Shown here piece by piece: positions 53,855 to 63,678 of a stretch of DNA of 64,000 nucleotides. The stretch is from an uncultured Gemmatimonadaceae bacterium. GTDB lineage: Bacteria > Gemmatimonadota > Gemmatimonadetes > Gemmatimonadales > Gemmatimonadaceae. The notes below the pieces were generated by a model that ran no database searches, was not told where the DNA came from, and saw nothing but the letters and a program-made list of their open reading frames with translations. Position 1 is the first letter of the stretch. Each line of letters opens with the position of its first letter. The DNA is taken from the NCBI GenBank assembly GCA_963829055.1, contig CAWHHI010000017.1, forward strand, positions 160,001-224,000, given 5' to 3'. Both the position numbers and the translations under genes were made by a program.

Positions 53855-54732
53855 ATGGTGCGCCCGACGATGATCGCGCTCTGGTCAGTATTGCTCCTTG
53901 CCGTTCGCGAGGGGAACGATCCAGGGACGAACCGCGCTGGGGAGGCCTCCGGACGGCAGGCGCCTCCCCTGCCGACGGTTTCGCTGGGGACGGAACACGG
54001 GTGCGGGCTCGCCGCCGGCGGCCAGGCGTACTGCTGGGGCTCGAACCGGCTCGGCCAGCTCGGCGATGATCGCGTCACGTCCGTGGCCGCGACCGTGGCG
54101 AGCGCCGTCCCCGTGGCGACGTCGCAGTCGTTCACGACGATCAGCGCCGGCGCGAACCACACGTGCGCGATCACCGCGGTGGGCGAGGCGTACTGCTGGG
54201 GACTGAACCTCACCGGCGAGCTCGCCCAGCGCGCTGGTCGCGAACGAATGCGACGGATTTCCGTGCAGTCGGCGTCCGGTGCGAGTGGAGACGAGCGCGC
54301 GATTCGATACGGTCTCCGCGGGTTTTGGCCATACGTGCGCGCTGAGCCTGGGTCGCGCGCTCTGCTGGGGGCGAAACGATCGTGGACAACTGGGAACGGC
54401 GCACGCGGACGACAGGTGCGACGGCATTGCCTGCAACGTGACACCGAGCGCGGGTGTCTACCGCGGACGGGCTCGCGTCCATGACGTTCACGTCGATCTC
54501 CGCGGGCGGCGATCACACCTGCGGGATTGCCGGCGGCGTCGCGTACTGCTGGGGATCGAACCAGTACGGCCAGCTCGGCCTGCCGATGTCGGTGCAGCGC
54601 AGCAGTCGTCCGATCGCCGTCCCATCAGTCGAGCGGCTGATCTCGATCCAGGCGAAGGGGATTCGAACATGCGGGCGGACAACTACCGGCAGGGAGACGT
54701 GCTGGGGAGCTGTCGGTGCGACAATGCCGTAG
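53855..54732 (+). CDS. RCC1-repeat protein, multiply frameshifted
   Basis: Repeated ISAG..HTC..G.AYCWG.N..GQLG units across three frames. Confidence 0.82.
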
Positions 54733-54806
54733 CCGTTAGGCAGCGGAGTCCGGTGGCCGAGCCGGCCGCCGCTTTGCGGCGGCCGCGGCAGCACGTACAA
54801 TGCAGT

Positions 54807-55778
54807 ATGACCAAGCATCAGGTCCCGCAGGTGGATCGAACCGCCCGCGCGGCCGCGAGCACGCATCTCATCATCCCGACGGGAACGCAGGTCGTCTCAC
54901 GCGTCGAGGTGCGTGCCGCGTCCGGCGCGGTGGTGTGCCCGCTGGGCGCCGCGGGTGTCGTGGTGCGCGCCCCCGACGACGCGACGCACGCGTACCGCGT
55001 TAGGCTGCCGGACGGCACCGAGGTCTCGCTCCGGCGGCAGGAGATCTCCATCCGCAAGCACGTGCAGCAGGAAGATCTCGACGCCGTCGGCGAGGTGCTC
55101 GCCGATCACGATCTCTACGAGTTCGTCATCTACCGCTGCGTCCTCGGCTCGCACGCATACGGGCTCGCGCACGAGCAGTCCGATACCGACCGGCGTGGCA
55201 TCTACCTCCCGCCGGCAGAGCTCCACTGGTCATTGTACGGCGTGCCCGAGCAGCTCGAAGACAAGAAGACGGACGAGGTGTACTGGGAGATCCGGAAATT
55301 CGTGTCGCTGGCGCTCAAGTCCAATCCGAACATCCTCGAGTGCCTGTACACGCCGATCGTCGAGATCGCGACGCCGCTCGCGCAGGAGCTGCTCGAGATG
55401 CGCACGATGTTCCTCTCGAAGCTGATCTATCAGACGTACAACGGCTACGTGCTCAGCCAGTTCAAGCGGCTCGAGCAGGATCTGCGCACGACCGGGACGC
55501 TCAAGTGGAAGCACGCGATGCACCTCATCCGCCTGCTGATCGCGGGCGTGACGGCGTTGCGCGAAGGCTACGTGCCGGTGCGCGTCGACGCCCATCGCGA
55601 TCGACTACTGGCGATCAAGCGCGGCGAGGTCGAGTGGCCCGAGGTGGACGCATGGCGGCTCGCGCTGCACAAGGAGTTCGATCACGCGCTCGAGACCACT
55701 GCGCTCCCCGACAGGCCTGACTACGAGCGTGCGAATGCATTTCTCATCAGAGCTCGTCGCGCGATGGTCAATCCATGA
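54807..55778 (+). CDS. Pol-beta-superfamily nucleotidyltransferase (RlaP/YcgL-like) with an extra N-terminal beta domain
   Basis: GSHAYGL..SDTDRRG, SNPNILECL, WKHAMHLIRLL, LPDRPD; ATG 54807 lies within ORF 54279-55778. Confidence 0.88.
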   Translation: MTKHQVPQVDRTARAAASTHLIIPTGTQVVSRVEVRAASGAVVCPLGAAGVVVRAPDDATHAYRVRLPDGTEVSLRRQEISIRKHVQQEDLDAVGEVLADHDLYEFVIYRCVLGSHAYGLAHEQSDTDRRGIYLPPAELHWSLYGVPEQLEDKKTDEVYWEIRKFVSLALKSNPNILECLYTPIVEIATPLAQELLEMRTMFLSKLIYQTYNGYVLSQFKRLEQDLRTTGTLKWKHAMHLIRLLIAGVTALREGYVPVRVDAHRDRLLAIKRGEVEWPEVDAWRLALHKEFDHALETTALPDRPDYERANAFLIRARRAMVNP

Positions 55779-56584
55779 ACGCTCGGATGGCGGACGGCGC
55801 ACAGCGGATGGCGAACGATTCTCGGCTTCTCGCGGAGGTCGCGCAGCATCCGCATCGGCTGCTGTTCGCGACGGTGAGCGGTGCGCACCTGTACGGATTT
55901 CCGTCTCCGGATTCCGACTTCGACCTGCGCGGAACACACGTGACGCCGGTGGAGCTACTCACGGGTCTCGACCGCGTGAATGAAACCGTCAAGCTGTCGC
56001 ACGATCGCGACGGGGCGGAGATCGATCTCGTTACGCACGAGGTGCGGAAGTTCTTCTCGCTCCTGTTGCGCGACAACGGCTACGTGCTCGAGCAGTTGTA
56101 CTCGCCACTCATCGTGCACACGAGCCCTGCGCACGACGAGTTGAAGGACGTCGCACGCGGATGCATCACGCGCCGCTGCGTACGCCACTACCTCGGCTTC
56201 GCGGTCAATCAATGGGGGCTGTTCGAGAAAGAGGAGCCGAGGCGGGTGAAGCCGCTGCTGTACGTCGTGCGCGTGCTGCTGTCGGGGATACACATGATGC
56301 GCACAGGCACGGTGAACGCGAATCTCCAGGAGTGCAACGATGCGCTCGGTGTGCATCGACTGGACTGGGTCGACGAACTGATCGCGCGGAAGATGGCTGG
56401 CCCGGAGCGCGAGACGATCGGCGCGGAGGACTTCGCGTTCCACCATCGTGAGTATCTCCGGCTGCGTGAGTGGCTGGCACGTGAGGCGGAACAGAGCACG
56501 CTACCTGATCATGCGACCGCGGAGCCGGCGTTGCGGGATTTGTTACACCGTATCCGCTTCGGGGAAACCGAGCAGGCTGCGTGA
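55775..56584 (+). CDS. Second RlaP/YcgL-like nucleotidyltransferase
   Basis: SGAHLYGFPSPDSDFDLRG, NGYVLEQL, KPLLYVVRVL; ATGA overlap. Confidence 0.88.
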   Translation: MNARMADGAQRMANDSRLLAEVAQHPHRLLFATVSGAHLYGFPSPDSDFDLRGTHVTPVELLTGLDRVNETVKLSHDRDGAEIDLVTHEVRKFFSLLLRDNGYVLEQLYSPLIVHTSPAHDELKDVARGCITRRCVRHYLGFAVNQWGLFEKEEPRRVKPLLYVVRVLLSGIHMMRTGTVNANLQECNDALGVHRLDWVDELIARKMAGPERETIGAEDFAFHHREYLRLREWLAREAEQSTLPDHATAEPALRDLLHRIRFGETEQAA

Positions 56585-58065: not shown

Positions 58066-61000
58066 CTATGGCCTCCGTCCTCCTTCCTCCGGTGGCGCCA
58101 TATACACGAGCGACGGATCAAACGCCCACAACGCCACGCCCACCGTCGGCAGCATCGACTCGAACGTCATGTCGACCGCGCGATTCTTTCCCATCCCGCT
58201 GTGACTCTCGCGCAGATCCGTCACGAGATCACTCAACGAGTGGCCGCGCGCGAACGACTCGGCGATCATTCGCGTGATGCGCGCATGCTGGTCCGGCTCA
58301 CCGAGACCCACGCCTACCACCGCCACCGCCGTTCCCTGACGGAACAGATCGGCCGCGAAGCCGTTGCGCAGCAGCATCTGCAGCATCGCCTGCGTACGGC
58401 CGTGGCCGCGCGACGGGTCGAGCACCACGATCGGGCGATCCGGCCAGCGCGTCTGGCCCAGCGCCCGTGTCACGCCGCTTGGCGTCAGTGCGTCGCCGCG
58501 CACAGACGCGTTGTCACTCGAACCGGCAGCGCGCGCGTCCAGCACGATTCCGCCGAGCGACGCCGACTCGCGCAGCGGGGCGCGCACGTGAATGACCTCG
58601 GGGTGAAAGCTCCCGCACAGCTCGCGCAGCTCCGCCACCGCTACGCCCTCGCGCACCATCGTGTCGAACCCTGCCTCCTCGTAGGCGCGCGCGACGCGGT
58701 CCGCGGCTGCTTCATCCTCGCCGCCAATCGAGCGCGCGAGCTCCGGCGCCGGCGCGATCACGAGCGCGCGAAGCCGCTGGTCGCCGCGGTGCAACCGCCG
58801 CAGCCGATCGAACAGGAGGGCCGACGTCGGACCATCCGCGATCCCGCTTGGCGTTAGGCCCACGGACTTCTGGAATGCGGACACCGCCCCGCGGGTCTGC
58901 GGCCCCTCGATCCCGTCGGCAAAGATGCGCGTGCCGCCGATCGTCGAGAGCGCCCGCTGCACCCACGTCACGTGCGTACGGCGCGCGTCGGTCACGCGGA
59001 CGCTCCGATAGAGCGTGCCGACACGCGGATCCAACGCCAGGAACCCGGGCTCCTCACCACGATCCGGAAAGCATTCCAAAGGCAGCGTATCGAGCAGCGG
59101 CGAGTCGACCTCGAGGCGCACGTCCACCGGTGGCGCTGACGTATTGCCGCCCAGCGTCGTCTCCCATAACTCGCGCGTGCCCAGCAACGTGCCGAGGTCG
59201 CGGATCGCTCCGAACCACTCATCGGCGAGCAAGCGCGACACCTGGTACGGCACCGCCTGCGACCTCGCCGCTTCGAGATCGCTGCGCAGGTGATCGAGCG
59301 CCGGGTTGTGCGCGGTGCTCGTATCGAATGCGACCGTGCCGTGTTCGTCGTCGCCAGCCGGAACCTCGCAGCGCACGTTCGTGCCGTCCGCCATGAGCCG
59401 TACCGAGATCGGCGGCCGTTCGTCGCGAACGGTCAGCTCGACCGTCGACGGGCCACGCTGTTCACGCAGACGTTCGGCGGCATGCTGCTGACCTAACGCG
59501 TCGTACCGGGAGATCGCCTCGGCGAGGAAGTGCTGGCGATCGTCAGCGGTGGCGGCGAACTGCGCGCGAAGATCATCGCACTGCGCCGACCAGAAGCTCG
59601 GCAGCTCGCCACGCGGAGACAGAAGGGGCGCCGCCGCCTCGGCCATCATGCGGGATTCCTCGCGCTTCCCTTCGCGAGCCAGATGTGCTGCCTCGCGAGA
59701 CGCGACGATTCCGGCGAGCGTGCGGTACTCGCCGGGATTCGCGATGAGCGCACTCACCGCCGCGCGTGATTGTCGCTGCGTCTCCGGCACGCCCATCTCA
59801 CACTCGAGCGAGTGCGCCAACGCGACAAGGGGTGCCGACGCACTCATCAGCGCGGCCGCCGACACGCTCGCCAGCCACTGCAGCGCGTCCGCTTCGAGGC
59901 CGAGCGCGAACGCGACGCGCGCCCGATCGAGCCGGGACCACGGTGACAGCGACCTGGCTGGCCCCAATACGGCATCGAACGTCACGCCGATGCGTTCCGC
60001 GACACTGCGGCCGACCTCGCCGATAGACGAGAGCGGAGCGAAGTCCGGAATCGCGCGCGAGATGCACAGCCGCGCCGCACCCGGCGGGGAGATACGCTCG
60101 ACCGCGTTCGTCAGCAGCGTCGCGTAGCCCGCGGCATCCCTGGCCGCGGTGCCAGCCGAAGCAGCGTTAGGCTCGCTGCCGCTTCGGTCTTCCGATAGCG
60201 CCGCGATCGCGACGCCCACGTCGACGCGGGGAGTCCGCGCGGCGCCGGGCGGACAGGACGTTCGCAGCCGGTTCGCGGCATCGACCGGTCGGCCGCGGGC
60301 GTCGTCGAGCCGCACCGCGGCCACTCGCAGCGCCGTCCAGGCATCGCCGCGCGGAGGAAGCGTTATGCGCTCAGCCTCGTTCAGGTGCTGTTCGGCCATC
60401 TTGAGATCGCCAACGCGATAGATCAACAGCAACACTTTGCGGTGAAGGTCGGCCGCGCTCTGCTCGACGCGCTTGATGCGTTGCGCCCAGATCTGCCGCG
60501 ACGTTTCCAGCTCGTCGAGCGCTGCGCCGTGGCGTCCCATCGTCGCCAGCACGGCTCCCCGCGCGCTCCGCGCCGTGCCCTCGGCCACGATCGCCAGCAT
60601 CTCGAATCCGGGGCGCGCCAGCTGCAGTGTGCCCAGCTGAGTCGCCGTCGCGAGCGCCGCGTCCACCATTCCGAGCGCCTCGGCCACTTCCCCGCGCGCC
60701 AGCATCGCGCGCGCTTCCAGCACCTCGATCTCGGCACGTGCGCCGAGCCATCCAGCGCGTTCCTCGGCGGGCGCAGTGGCGGGTAGCGCTGCCAGCGCCG
60801 CCTGACATTCGCCGCGCGCATTCCTCACGGCGCCAAGTGCCTGACGCGGCTCGTCGCTGCCGAGCCAGGCTTCCGCGAGCCGCGCCGTCGCGTAACAGCG
60901 TTCCATGGAGCCGCGCGGCATGCGCCCACGCACGAGCAGCAGCTGTTCGGCAGCCAGGTCGTACCGGTCGTGCAGCATGCAATGCGCGGCCAGTAACTGC

Positions 61001-63678
61001 CGCAATTCCAGCAGCTGTCGCGGCGCAACATCCGTGTCCACCTCGGCGAGCTTCACCGCTTCGGTGAGGTGGTCGATCGCCGCTGGCTCCTCGCGCGTCG
61101 CGAAGACGCCCCCGAGCGCGATCGCCAGCTGCAGGCGGTCCGCCGGTGACGTCATCGAGGGACGGATGCGCTCGAGTCGCCGGAGCGCGTCGTCGGCCCT
61201 GCCGTATCGCGCGTCGATCTGCGCGCGCAGTACGTCGAGCGTGCCGCGATTCACGTGCGCGCCCTCACCGCGGCGGACGAGTGCCTCGAGATCCTCGAGC
61301 GCGCGCTCGCCCTCCGCCCACCAGTCGACGTCACCGCTGCCGCCACTCGACGCGCCGAGCTGGATCGCGGCGCGCGCCTTCGCGATCAGCGCGTCGCACA
61401 GCAGCGCCGGCGCAATGATCGGCGTGCCATCGTCCCGGAGAATTGGACGGCGATCGTCGTCGAGGTACTCGGGCTGCGTGGGCTCGGTAGCCACCTCGAA
61501 CGCGAGGCGCACATCGGTCTTCGTCATGGCGCGACGGAGCGAGCGGCGCCACGCACGCTCCGCTTCCGGACCGCCGAGCTGGAAGCGGTGGAACAGCATC
61601 GCGCGCGTGGCGCGTACCCAGCGCTCGTTGTCGACTCGTTCGACGGCCCGTGCGACACTCGCGTAGTACGTCGCCGCGCGCTGTTGCAGGCGGCGGAACA
61701 CCGGCTGGCGCTGCAGCTCGCGACGCATCGGGCGCACCGCGTCTTCGTGGAAGACGACGGTATCGCGGTCGGCGTCCGCGCGTACGAACGACAGGGTGCT
61801 CGCGTAGCCCTCGAGGCGAGACCAGAGGTCATCCACTTCCAGCGCGACGGCGCCCGCACTCGCCTCGCCAGGCGCGACGTAGTAGGGATGCAATCCAGTG
61901 GCGTCGAGACGTGGATCGTCTCGCTGCGACGTGCCACCTAACGCCGCGTGGAGCTCCGGCAGCAGCACATCGCGCAGGAAGCTCTTCGTCAGCTGACGCG
62001 GCACCACGCCGTAGCGCAGGAGCCAGCATAACGCCTGGTCCGATGCTTCGATCCGGCGCAGTACGCGATTGACGAGATACTCGAGCTCCGGATTCGGCGA
62101 TGCCCGCACCTGCTCGGCCGTCATCTCGCCCCCGATCTGCCATTCGTCGGCATACAGGGAGAGCGCGAACGGCAGCCCGCGCGAGCACTCCGCCATGGCG
62201 CGCACCGCGTCGCCGTCGGGGAGGCCACGAATGTCCACGAGATAGCGCACGCTCTCGTCGGGCTCGAAGCGCTGGATCCGGACGGACCGCGTGACATCGC
62301 CGAACTCGGTGCCGAATCCCTTCAGCTTCGTATCGTCCCGCAGATCGAATCGGCCGGCGAGGACCAACCGCAGATTCGGGTACGCGTCGTGGACGCTCGA
62401 CAGACACGCGATGACCGACATCAGGTTCGTGGTGCGCCGGCGGATGACATCCTCGAGCGTGTCGAGCACGACGACGACTGCACCGCCGACGGTATCCCGC
62501 AGCGTATCCGCGAAGTCTTCGGTGACCTGTCGCGCCAGGCGCTGCTCGCCGGTGACGTCGAGAATCTCTCCCGTGTGCTGCGCGCGTCCCTCGACGACCA
62601 GGTCTCGCGCGATGGACACGTACTCATCGTACCGCTCGATGAACCCGGAGAGCGGACGGCCGGCGATCTGCGCGTTGAGCTGCTCGGCGAGGCGGACCAA
62701 CAGCAGCCATGGCGCTTCGGGGAGTACCGTCGGATCCGTGAAGTCGAAGTCGATGCGCGCGTACGGCACGCGATTCGGTACGCACTTCCGCGCGGCAAGC
62801 CACTGCAGGAAGATCGTCTTCCCCATCCCGCCCTGCGCGGTGAGGTCGATGATCCACTCGCGGTCCACGGTGTTCACCGACGCGGCCGACGTCGTGTTGA
62901 TCCCTTGAATGCGGGCCCATTCGTCGCGCATGAACTGCCGTTCGAGCGCATGCGCGCTCTTCGCCAGATCGCCCGCGAACGCACAGCGCGCCTCGTAGTA
63001 CTGCTGCAACGAGTCGTGCATCTCGACCAGCCGCGTGATGGCCAGGCGACGGTCCGCCGCCTGGCCGCGCTGATCACGATGGCGCAACAGCAGCGCGCGC
63101 TGCCCGCCGATGATCTGCAGCACGCGGTAGCAGCGCGCCACGTTGAACTCGGCGTCCGCCTCGCGATACAGCTCGTTCAGCCGCTCGGCGGCTGCCGCCG
63201 GATCAGCCAGGGCGAGCTGGTAGAGGTGCTCGATGCGCCAACCGACGCGAACCGCCTTCCCCGGCGGCGCGAGGTAGTCTACGATCGCGCGACTCAGGGC
63301 GACGCCGTCGAGGACGTCCGAATACGCAGGTGCTTTGTCGTTAGGCGCGAACCATCGCTCCAACCGGGCCGCGCGCGCATCGGCGCGCATGCGGTACACG
63401 GGCTCGCTGCCACCAACGCGCTCGATATCGTTGTGCGCAGTGAGCCACGCGATGTCGGCGTCCGCGTCGGGCGTCGCGTCGCCAGCCGACGGCAGCTGGG
63501 CCAGCAGGACCGTGCGGGCCATCCCCTCATCGAAGATCACCGGAATCGCCGCGCGTCGCAGCAGCATGTGGCGCCGCTCCGGCACGAGCGTCTCGGCCAC
63601 CTCGCGCAGGCTGCCGAGATGATCGGCTTTCGCGAGGAGCGCGCGGAGCGCGGTGAGCGATTCCTGGCTGGTCGCCAC
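58066..63678 (-). CDS. 1870-aa STAND-class P-loop NTPase with TPR-like repeats and a C-terminal degenerate CHAT domain containing a peptidoglycan-binding insert
   Basis: Walker A AQGGMGKT, Walker B VVVVLDTLE, LRLVLAGR, RGLPFAL (GxP); long helical repeats; LDTLPLE, LRALVIAP, VIHVRAP, IVVLDPS; VQRAL..DGIEGPQTRGAVSAFQKSVGLTPSGIADGPT. Confidence 0.85.
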   Translation of the reverse strand: MATSQESLTALRALLAKADHLGSLREVAETLVPERRHMLLRRAAIPVIFDEGMARTVLLAQLPSAGDATPDADADIAWLTAHNDIERVGGSEPVYRMRADARAARLERWFAPNDKAPAYSDVLDGVALSRAIVDYLAPPGKAVRVGWRIEHLYQLALADPAAAAERLNELYREADAEFNVARCYRVLQIIGGQRALLLRHRDQRGQAADRRLAITRLVEMHDSLQQYYEARCAFAGDLAKSAHALERQFMRDEWARIQGINTTSAASVNTVDREWIIDLTAQGGMGKTIFLQWLAARKCVPNRVPYARIDFDFTDPTVLPEAPWLLLVRLAEQLNAQIAGRPLSGFIERYDEYVSIARDLVVEGRAQHTGEILDVTGEQRLARQVTEDFADTLRDTVGGAVVVVLDTLEDVIRRRTTNLMSVIACLSSVHDAYPNLRLVLAGRFDLRDDTKLKGFGTEFGDVTRSVRIQRFEPDESVRYLVDIRGLPDGDAVRAMAECSRGLPFALSLYADEWQIGGEMTAEQVRASPNPELEYLVNRVLRRIEASDQALCWLLRYGVVPRQLTKSFLRDVLLPELHAALGGTSQRDDPRLDATGLHPYYVAPGEASAGAVALEVDDLWSRLEGYASTLSFVRADADRDTVVFHEDAVRPMRRELQRQPVFRRLQQRAATYYASVARAVERVDNERWVRATRAMLFHRFQLGGPEAERAWRRSLRRAMTKTDVRLAFEVATEPTQPEYLDDDRRPILRDDGTPIIAPALLCDALIAKARAAIQLGASSGGSGDVDWWAEGERALEDLEALVRRGEGAHVNRGTLDVLRAQIDARYGRADDALRRLERIRPSMTSPADRLQLAIALGGVFATREEPAAIDHLTEAVKLAEVDTDVAPRQLLELRQLLAAHCMLHDRYDLAAEQLLLVRGRMPRGSMERCYATARLAEAWLGSDEPRQALGAVRNARGECQAALAALPATAPAEERAGWLGARAEIEVLEARAMLARGEVAEALGMVDAALATATQLGTLQLARPGFEMLAIVAEGTARSARGAVLATMGRHGAALDELETSRQIWAQRIKRVEQSAADLHRKVLLLIYRVGDLKMAEQHLNEAERITLPPRGDAWTALRVAAVRLDDARGRPVDAANRLRTSCPPGAARTPRVDVGVAIAALSEDRSGSEPNAASAGTAARDAAGYATLLTNAVERISPPGAARLCISRAIPDFAPLSSIGEVGRSVAERIGVTFDAVLGPARSLSPWSRLDRARVAFALGLEADALQWLASVSAAALMSASAPLVALAHSLECEMGVPETQRQSRAAVSALIANPGEYRTLAGIVASREAAHLAREGKREESRMMAEAAAPLLSPRGELPSFWSAQCDDLRAQFAATADDRQHFLAEAISRYDALGQQHAAERLREQRGPSTVELTVRDERPPISVRLMADGTNVRCEVPAGDDEHGTVAFDTSTAHNPALDHLRSDLEAARSQAVPYQVSRLLADEWFGAIRDLGTLLGTRELWETTLGGNTSAPPVDVRLEVDSPLLDTLPLECFPDRGEEPGFLALDPRVGTLYRSVRVTDARRTHVTWVQRALSTIGGTRIFADGIEGPQTRGAVSAFQKSVGLTPSGIADGPTSALLFDRLRRLHRGDQRLRALVIAPAPELARSIGGEDEAAADRVARAYEEAGFDTMVREGVAVAELRELCGSFHPEVIHVRAPLRESASLGGIVLDARAAGSSDNASVRGDALTPSGVTRALGQTRWPDRPIVVLDPSRGHGRTQAMLQMLLRNGFAADLFRQGTAVAVVGVGLGEPDQHARITRMIAESFARGHSLSDLVTDLRESHSGMGKNRAVDMTFESMLPTVGVALWAFDPSLVYMAPPEEGGRRP

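Follow-up and report, generated by a model that had tools for sequence, protein, structure and literature searches.

A pseudo-CHAT domain family on STAND-TPR proteins, encoded beside an active-looking CHAT protease–NTPase

Receptors of the STAND (signal transduction ATPases with numerous domains) and nucleotide-binding leucine-rich repeat (NLR) types, together with caspase-like proteases, are among the central components of immunity and of cell death, in bacteria as well as in animals and plants. What does a caspase-like domain do on such a receptor once its catalytic residues have gone? The question is raised by a gene in a 64,000-nucleotide (nt) stretch of an uncultured Gemmatimonadaceae bacterium (positions 160,001 to 224,000 of contig CAWHHI010000017.1, assembly GCA_963829055.1), here called the window. 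The gene encodes a protein of 1870 amino acids (aa), the large protein, in which a STAND NTPase is followed by an array of tetratricopeptide repeats (TPR) and a CHAT-like module that carries a PG_binding_1 unit. Here, we describe a new family of pseudo-CHAT domains on STAND receptors, for which there is no existing model and which has a conserved active-CHAT partner encoded next to it.

The CHAT-like module and the rest of the large protein

An earlier note on this DNA, made from the sequence alone, had proposed that the last ~450 aa follow the motif order of a CHAT domain, and that the catalytic His and Cys are replaced by Pro and Ser. An AlphaFold2 model of aa 1400–1870, built on a 42-row alignment (A1), has a pLDDT of 86.4 and a pTM of 0.89 and agrees with the first proposal. 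When the model was compared with 48,161 Protein Data Bank (PDB) chains using VIA-align (VIA), a search independent of Foldseek, the top match was Csx29 (7y9x_B; Z 19.2, root-mean-square deviation (rmsd) 3.7 over 295 aa, model residues 21–458; 7zoq_A had Z 18.9), and gingipain RgpB (Z 16.2), separase (5fc2_B, 16.1), DdvA (16.0) and SAVED-CHAT (8tl0_A, 15.3) were also returned. Legumain, metacaspases, caspases, MALT1 and the protease-like domain of c-FLIP (3h13_A, 9.8) had Z scores of ~9.8–11.6. The best Foldseek matches in the PDB were separase, SAVED-CHAT and the TPR-CHAT protein of Craspase, at E ~1e-4. SAVED-CHAT, legumain, metacaspase, the caspases and c-FLIP align to model residues 213–469. 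As the Csx29, separase and gingipain matches span both halves of the model, they point to a complete two-subdomain CHAT unit, and in its predicted structure the module is a CHAT-fold pseudo-peptidase made up of an N-subdomain and a caspase-like C-subdomain. The nearest clusters in the ESM Atlas are CHAT families (score 0.83), a match that we treat as a lead only.

The Pfam CHAT model PF12770 does not match the 1870 aa protein even at E≤1, and the family profile, run against PDB sequences, found PG_binding and TPR relatives and no caspase or CHAT chain at significant E. Using hhalign, A1 could be aligned with A3, an alignment of 12 CHAT proteins encoded by the partner gene described below, over 257 columns (Prob 97.1, E 5.9e-11). 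With the full-length family alignment in place of A1, the comparison with the partner CHAT family gave an E of 8.3e-11.

The A1/A3 profile alignment also places the residues that had been read by eye. HVRAP lies opposite HFLGH, with Pro1701 at the invariant catalytic His, and LDPS lies opposite INAC, with Ser1756 at the invariant Cys; the other CHAT protein of the operon aligns likewise, weakly, at both positions. In a MAFFT alignment of 111 family members, from which the 99%-identical protein P0002 was left out, the His column contains P (35), G (26), S (16), T (15), A (7) and others, and the Cys column P (57), S (15), D (12), A (10) and others. His is absent from the first (0/111) and Cys from the second (0/111). 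There is no column in this alignment where Cys is the commonest residue, and a stray His or Cys beside the dyad columns is found in few of the 111 sequences. The 19 homologs derived from the locus search described below likewise have no His/Cys dyad, and the search of homologs that had been suggested as a check on the dyad finds no His or Cys in those two columns. To judge from these alignments, the dyad has been lost across the whole pseudo-CHAT family, which is predicted not to be a peptidase.

Other residues have been kept. Y1666 and H1697 are invariant in A1, and P1749, D1754, R1771, N1772, F1774, A1775, G1791 and L1792 are also strongly conserved. H1697, the structural His that comes first in the HxxxHG motif, is common to the active CHAT family, while R1771-N1772 has no counterpart there. 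In the N-subdomain, the PWE-type motif is LPLE (E1535). Conservation of P1533, E1535 and R1558 is at least 90%, and in the profile alignment they match LPWE and R in the active CHAT family. The invariant or near-invariant Y1666, H1697, D1754, R1771 and N1772 around the former active-site strands suggest a retained function.

The PG_binding_1 unit was identified by Pfam (PF01471, E 1.4e-9, 38.4 bits against a gathering cut-off of 23) and is a bundle of three helices in the model (residues 163–232). Its location, which had been given as between two CHAT motifs, can be refined to the linker between the CHAT subdomains: it follows the final strand of the N-subdomain and precedes the first caspase-like strand, outside the caspase core, and in the profile alignment the active CHAT family has a gap opposite it. 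Over 59–68 aa, the unit can be superposed on the PG-binding domains of four proteins (SleC, CtpB, SleB and the Burkholderia phage AP3 endolysin), with Z 9.4–10.0 and rmsd 1.3–2.3. Its sequence matches in the PDB are endolysins, L,D-transpeptidases and spore lytic enzymes, and the family profile also matches the cyanobacterial OpcA chain 9emm_E (E 1.3e-5), a protein that we take to be cytoplasmic.

Homologs retrieved via a motif outside the unit, [QS]LLLRNAFA, were used to count how often it occurs. Pfam finds PG_binding_1 in 6/16 metagenome homologs and not in the other 10. It is present in 9/19 aligned C-termini (the window, L005, L023, L033, L035, L040, L042, L043 and L047) and replaced by a short linker in the remaining 10, several of which are closely related; L036 has an apparent DGxxGP remnant at the insertion site. 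In a FastTree phylogeny of the module with the insert removed, forms with and without it are interleaved, in a small tree where many supports are low (0.10–0.86). The PG_binding_1 unit is a genuine but optional insertion. The earlier note had proposed a wall-fragment or lysin-mimic sensor carried by the dead protease as a scaffold or decoy; as the pseudo-CHAT is always present and the insert is often missing, the mechanism cannot have such a sensor at its core.

The STAND-TPR, NLR-like character given to the rest of the protein was recovered. A model of aa 1–720 (pLDDT 84.1) matched CED-4 (2a5y_B, E 5.6e-8), plant NRC3, MalT and Dark in Foldseek and Cdc6/ORC (Z 13.0), MalT (12.2), Dark (12.0), Avs3 (8dgc_A, 11.5) and EfAvs5 (10.6) in VIA, where alignments of the NTPase module cover model residues 236–660. 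These matches point to a STAND module with nucleotide-binding, helical and winged-helix parts. The curated STAND models in Pfam (NB-ARC, NACHT and others) have no match on the window protein, and in the 16 metagenome homologs AAA_22 is above cut-off in one and NACHT below cut-off in two. In an alignment of 36 full-length homologs, G284, G286, K287, D406, T407, E409 and R443 do not vary, and because the Walker residues are among them the NTPase, with Walker A and Walker B both intact, looks active. Over profile positions ~740–1100 the family profile matches TPR proteins in the PDB with E values to 4.8e-23, and it also matches the TPR region of AfsR (E 7.6e-6). Across the 1870 aa, PG_binding_1 is the sole Pfam domain above threshold, with a weak TPR_12 match; NCBIfam gives sub-threshold matches only, via the PG_binding segment. 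Residues 1–230 have no match in Pfam, NCBIfam or PADLOC and were barely covered by the fold searches.

A Kyte–Doolittle scan, the sole basis for this point, found no signal-like N-terminus (maximum 1.1 in the first 60 aa) and no convincing transmembrane segment, the one window above 1.6 being a borderline 1.75 in an Ala-rich helix at aa 1269. By this crude measure the protein is cytoplasmic-looking, as had been proposed, and this is consistent with its NTPase.

The partner gene and the extent of the family

The gene upstream of the large gene encodes the partner, a protein with Pfam matches to CHAT (E 6.2e-22) and AAA_16 (E 1e-7). It has the motifs HFLGHG and INAC, and H297, C346, G500 and K501 are invariant in 12 partner orthologs. 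From these residues, the partner looks active: its CHAT protease is intact and is joined to a P-loop NTPase. Its only match in PADLOC is a weak one to SAVED_CHAT (E 4.5e-4). The large gene, which is present in one copy in the source genome, starts with GTG 3 nt past the TAG of the partner gene. The operon runs, on the reverse strand, from a gene for a 758 aa intact CHAT protein through one for a 527 aa DUF7379 alpha/beta-hydrolase to the 751 aa CHAT-AAA_16 and the 1870 aa genes (Table 1).

A locus search with an 11-row alignment returned 5 genome loci and 17 metagenome loci. Those with a full-length homolog (at least 1400 aa) and upstream DNA could be assessed for gene order: Variovorax ureilyticus (L005), a second Gemmatimonadota genome (L023) and nine metagenome contigs. 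A partner homolog is found directly upstream and on the same strand, often overlapping, in 11/11; ten further loci end at contig edges and are outside this count. The strict adjacency to a gene for an active-looking CHAT protease is the ground for reading the two genes as a switch, apparently one not described before, by which proteolysis is controlled.

Other genes at these loci vary. A second CHAT gene is present at the window locus and in L023, and the DUF7379 hydrolase, among the loci examined, at the window locus only. CHAT-Clp_N is found in L037, trypsin in L040 and G094, and Metallophos in three related loci. A gene of ~450–577 aa lies directly downstream of the large gene in five loci, and may be an optional third component. 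Its copies are 30–42% identical, they have no Pfam or PADLOC match, and tblastn found none in the window's genome.

The large protein has 12 close full-length homologs (72–99% identity). When aa 1400–1870 were searched with HMMER against 1.84 billion cluster representatives, 1965 proteins were returned at E≤1e-3, many of them matching through PG_binding repeats only. From 162 of these, 111 align over more than 250 positions. Seventy of the 111 are at least 1400 aa long, and the domain is at the extreme C-terminus in 68 of the 70; a further 11 are 700–1399 aa and 30 are shorter than 700 aa, and these shorter ones may include contig fragments. The full-length domain was found in 2/401 sampled genomes of the window's own phylum, where the other 13 matches were to the PG_binding part only, and in 1/401 genomes of the order of the Variovorax genome, which is the seed genome itself. 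Members are also found in metagenome-assembled genomes (MAGs) titled Solirubrobacteraceae, Thermoanaerobaculia, Anaerolineae and Chthonomonadales. By these sequence counts, this is a broad family without a Pfam or PADLOC model, with at least 70 clusters at 50% identity that share a common architecture in several phyla.

Two members differ in form. In a Solirubrobacteraceae MAG (L003), the pseudo-CHAT and PG_binding parts are joined to a different, shorter N-terminal region; there is no CHAT-NTPase neighbour, and the upstream genes are AlkZ-like and MMPL. In L045, the homolog of the large gene appears split into pieces of 306 and 1533 aa in different frames, maybe by a frameshift or an assembly error.

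In the window, scans for a terminator and a promoter downstream of the large gene found none. Two adjacent RlaP-family genes lie on the other strand; the first open reading frame (ORF), taken from its earliest start, has N-terminal RCC1-repeat matches that may belong to an overlapping upstream gene. Beyond them is an ORF with a BTAD domain and a long Arg/Ala-rich low-complexity tail, the 3' part of which may be an over-extended ORF call in high-GC DNA.

Table 1. Positions of the features described (window numbering unless a contig or locus is named)
Feature	Residues or size	Position	Strand	Basis or content
Large gene, STAND-TPR-pseudoCHAT protein (P0001)	1870 aa	58066..63678	(-)	ORF list and translation
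N-terminal helical domain	aa 1-230	62989..63678	(-)	all-helical in model of aa 1-720
STAND NTPase module (nucleotide-binding domain, helical domain, winged helix)	aa ~236-660	61699..62973	(-)	Foldseek, VIA
Walker A	G284/G286/K287	62818-62829	(-)	alignment of full-length homologs
Walker B	D406/T407/E409	62452-62463	(-)	alignment of full-length homologs, as for R443
TPR/helical repeat array	aa ~680-1400	59479..61641	(-)	family profile against PDB sequences, weak Pfam TPR_12
N-terminal subdomain of CHAT-like module	aa ~1420-1559	59002..59421	(-)	alignments start at model residue 20-22
PG_binding_1 three-helix insert	aa ~1562-1631	58786..58995	(-)	Pfam, structural superposition
Pfam PF01471 match inside insert	aa 1568-1621	58816-58977	(-)	
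Caspase-like C-terminal subdomain without dyad	aa ~1634-1864	58087..58779	(-)	profile and structure alignments
His position	Pro1701	58576-58578	(-)	
Cys position	Ser1756	58411-58413	(-)	
Partner gene, 3' end	751 aa	63682..64000, on to G000:C17:225937 beyond the window	(-)	CHAT and AAA_16 P-loop NTPase
CHAT gene and DUF7379 gene (E 3.3e-50)	758 aa and 527 aa	G000:C17:225918-229862 = L001 7919-11863, beyond the window end	(-)	
Downstream gene	~450-577 aa	L023 3379-5112	(-)	
Downstream gene	~450-577 aa	L036 11657-13060	(+)	
Downstream gene	~450-577 aa	L040 7236-8720	(+)	
Downstream gene	~450-577 aa	L042 8675-10072	(+)	
Downstream gene	~450-577 aa	L048 10368-11699	(+)	
Short form with pseudo-CHAT and PG_binding	762 aa	L003 8447-10735	(+)	
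Split homolog of large gene	306 aa and 1533 aa	L045 5319-10230	(+)	
Two adjacent RlaP-family genes		54279-56584	(+)	RNA repair pathway, DNA polymerase beta-like nucleotidyltransferase; E 2.9e-43, 1.2e-48
ORF with BTAD transcriptional-activator domain	775 aa	51504-53831	(-)	

Possible roles of the gene pair

The reading that we favour, tentatively and at slightly under an even chance, is that the pair is a two-gene NLR-like system, in which the large protein is the sensor and platform, the partner is the executioner, and the pseudo-CHAT docks or restrains the partner protease. The TPR array and the C-terminal end would read a trigger, and NTP-dependent oligomerisation of the large protein would then be released. 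The pseudo-CHAT, as a non-catalytic relative of the partner protease, would dock onto or hold it and so set whether it is active, either by pairing of protease and pseudo-protease as in caspase-8/c-FLIP, or as a clamp that binds peptides. The PG_binding_1 insert would be an optional accessory binder that tunes the docking step, and the second CHAT protease and the DUF7379 alpha/beta-hydrolase would be likely downstream or parallel components in this genome.

Several points weigh against this proposal. We infer the contact between the large protein and the CHAT-NTPase, and the domains involved, and the pairing could equally run through the two NTPase modules. BLASTP of aa 1400–1870 against each neighbouring CHAT protein returned nothing significant, and the pseudo-CHAT family profile, which matches single CHAT sequences weakly, is no closer to the partner (E 0.01) than to the other operon CHAT (E 0.023); thus a specific duplication from the partner is unsupported. 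PADLOC 2.0 returned 0 families at E≤1 for the large protein and no recognisable defence genes were found within ~20 kb, so an immune role is argued from architecture and patchy distribution only. The position of the pseudo-CHAT, at the end where STAND proteins usually have their sensor, favours the alternative considered next. Apart from these points, a complex prediction for the partner CHAT (aa 27–445) and the pseudo-CHAT (aa 1419–1870) scored 0.01 and 0.14 against a mark of 0.32, without controls, and speaks neither for nor against binding. BLASTP of the C-terminal 122 aa of the partner against the N-terminal 270 aa of the large protein, in which a shared adaptor was sought, found none (E 0.3).

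The strongest alternative, which is close to the proposal of the earlier note and which we still consider unlikely, is that the pseudo-CHAT, together with the insert where present, is a ligand-recognition end or integrated decoy. It would mimic the partner protease and capture an invader factor, for example an inhibitor of CHAT proteases, and the insert may bind a muropeptide, a wall precursor or a lysin-like protein; binding would lead to STAND oligomerisation and to activation of the CHAT-NTPase via the NTPase modules. The C-terminal position, where STAND proteins usually carry their sensors, fits this, as does the retention of cleft-lining residues after catalysis was lost. The PG_binding_1 unit has kept the family consensus and fold, and the interleaving of forms with and without it, in the small and weakly supported tree, is what a swappable recognition module might produce. 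The strict pairing of a dead domain with its active relative also resembles plant sensor/helper NLR pairs with integrated decoys. However, the insert is absent from 10/19 homologs and its ligand is hypothetical. As the PG_binding_1 fold is also found in cytoplasmic or non-wall contexts such as OpcA, its presence does not imply wall binding, and the long TPR array would already suffice as a sensor.

A bolder proposal, which we regard as improbable, is that the pair is a bacterial counterpart of paired sensor/helper NLRs that have an integrated decoy. The giant STAND protein would bear a dead copy of the partner protease as bait and, in the PG_binding lineages, a cytoplasmic sensor of peptidoglycan fragments or lysins, a logic like that of NOD1/2 built from different parts. 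An attack on the bait, or the sensing of wall damage, would make it fire the CHAT-NTPase.

Ranked below this, and no better than a slim prospect, is a role outside immunity. The pair might be a housekeeping or developmental switch for regulated proteolysis, or an envelope-stress switch, in which the insert would monitor the state of the cell itself through peptidoglycan precursors or recycling products in the cytoplasm. The lack of nearby defence genes and of a PADLOC match is consistent with this, as are the gene neighbours, which are regulators, transporters and hydrolases, and a GC content like that of the rest of the window. Yet the family is very patchy while reaching several phyla, and its accessory genes (an extra CHAT, trypsin, Metallophos, the third gene) vary, both of which are typical of mobile conflict systems.

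More doubtful again is the suggestion that the domain is not dead, and that H1697, D1754, R1771, N1772 and Y1666 form a repurposed site that binds or turns over a ligand, for example a nucleotide-derived signal. Among the 111 members, at ~30% identity, each of the five is either invariant or conserved at more than 87%, and the absence of R1771-N1772 from the active CHAT family would suit a new role. Against it, H1697 is a structural His that active CHAT proteins also keep, and neither Foldseek nor VIA found in the PDB any likeness to enzymes other than clan-CD peptidases. Export of the protein, with the PG_binding_1 unit as a tether to the sacculus, is barely credible: PG_binding_1 is mostly found on exported wall enzymes, as the PDB matches reflect, but the large protein has neither an N-terminal hydrophobic core nor a convincing transmembrane segment, its conserved Walker A and B motifs need cytoplasmic NTP, and at 1870 aa it is translationally coupled to another NTPase.

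Relation to known systems

The best structural match of the C-terminal module is to Csx29, the TPR-CHAT protein of the type III-E Craspase (7y9x, 7zoq, 7y83; Z 17.1–19.2 over 279–309 residues), which like the large protein has a CHAT module of two subdomains after an array of helical repeats. Unlike the large protein, Csx29 has an active His/Cys dyad, lacks a STAND NTPase and a PG_binding insert, and is under the control of Cas7-11-crRNA; at the locus described here, no CRISPR genes were seen.

CED-4 and Dark, among the top Foldseek matches of the NTPase module, recall the apoptosome (CED-4/Apaf-1/Dark with CED-3/caspase-9), and the picture of a STAND platform in control of a caspase-like protease is taken from there by analogy. 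Recruitment in animals is via CARD/DED adaptors, none of which was detected here. c-FLIP is a dead paralog that modulates a live caspase; its pseudo-caspase domain (3h13_A) aligns to the dead subdomain with Z 9.8, and the idea that the dead domain modulates a live one is drawn from it as an analogy only. Avs and bacterial NACHT proteins share a STAND NTPase and a C-terminal repeat sensor with the large protein. In the pair described here, however, a second, separate NTPase protein carries the effector, the repeats are followed by a pseudo-protease, and the large protein has no PADLOC match. NOD1 and NOD2 sense peptidoglycan fragments with leucine-rich repeats, not PG_binding_1; the likeness is that an NLR-type protein is linked to a peptidoglycan-related module, here optional and with binding only predicted. 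The natural variants with and without the insert offer a way to ask whether a cytoplasmic PG_binding_1 module senses wall material.

The earlier note had called the architecture undescribed. This held for the exact architecture, of which our literature search found no description, although the supplementary data of the three publications cited here (PMC7159879, PMC8195603 and bioRxiv 10.64898/2026.01.04.697583, each used in part) may list the gene pair. It did not hold for the underlying idea, as inactive caspase-like domains in prokaryotic conflict systems are already in print. Kaur, Burroughs, Iyer and Aravind (2020; PMC7159879) found ~70% of effector-position caspase domains in vWA-MoxR systems to be inactive, and read them as likely dominant-negative regulators or peptide binders, a precedent for the role that we favour for the pseudo-CHAT. 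In these ternary systems of the vWA-MoxR type, as here, dyad-less caspase-superfamily domains occur in prokaryotic systems regulated by NTPases. The caspase domain of their VMAP component goes with a neighbouring alpha/beta-hydrolase gene, and the 758 aa CHAT and DUF7379 genes at the window locus are a similar pairing. Here, by contrast, the dead domain is C-terminal on an active-looking STAND-TPR protein, and no MoxR or vWA gene was found in the operon or its flanks, where CHAT, DUF7379, CHAT-AAA_16, the large gene, a hydrolase and RlaP are present; in the part of that article used here, no PG_binding insert is mentioned for vWA-MoxR caspase domains.

Operons with two STAND proteins, one with an eroded NTPase, were described by Kaur et al. 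(2021; PMC8195603), while both P-loops are intact in the pair described here. A 2026 survey of STAND proteins (bioRxiv 10.64898/2026.01.04.697583) reports N-terminal caspase-like proteases on bacterial Apaf-1 orthologs, in contrast to the dead and C-terminal caspase-like domain of the large protein. The pair is a concrete two-gene system in which to ask how dead proteases regulate live ones in bacteria. An NLR-like receptor that bears a pseudo-caspase and is itself in strict gene pairing with a live caspase-like protease would represent the logic of the apoptosome and c-FLIP, or of plant sensor/helper NLR pairs, reached independently.

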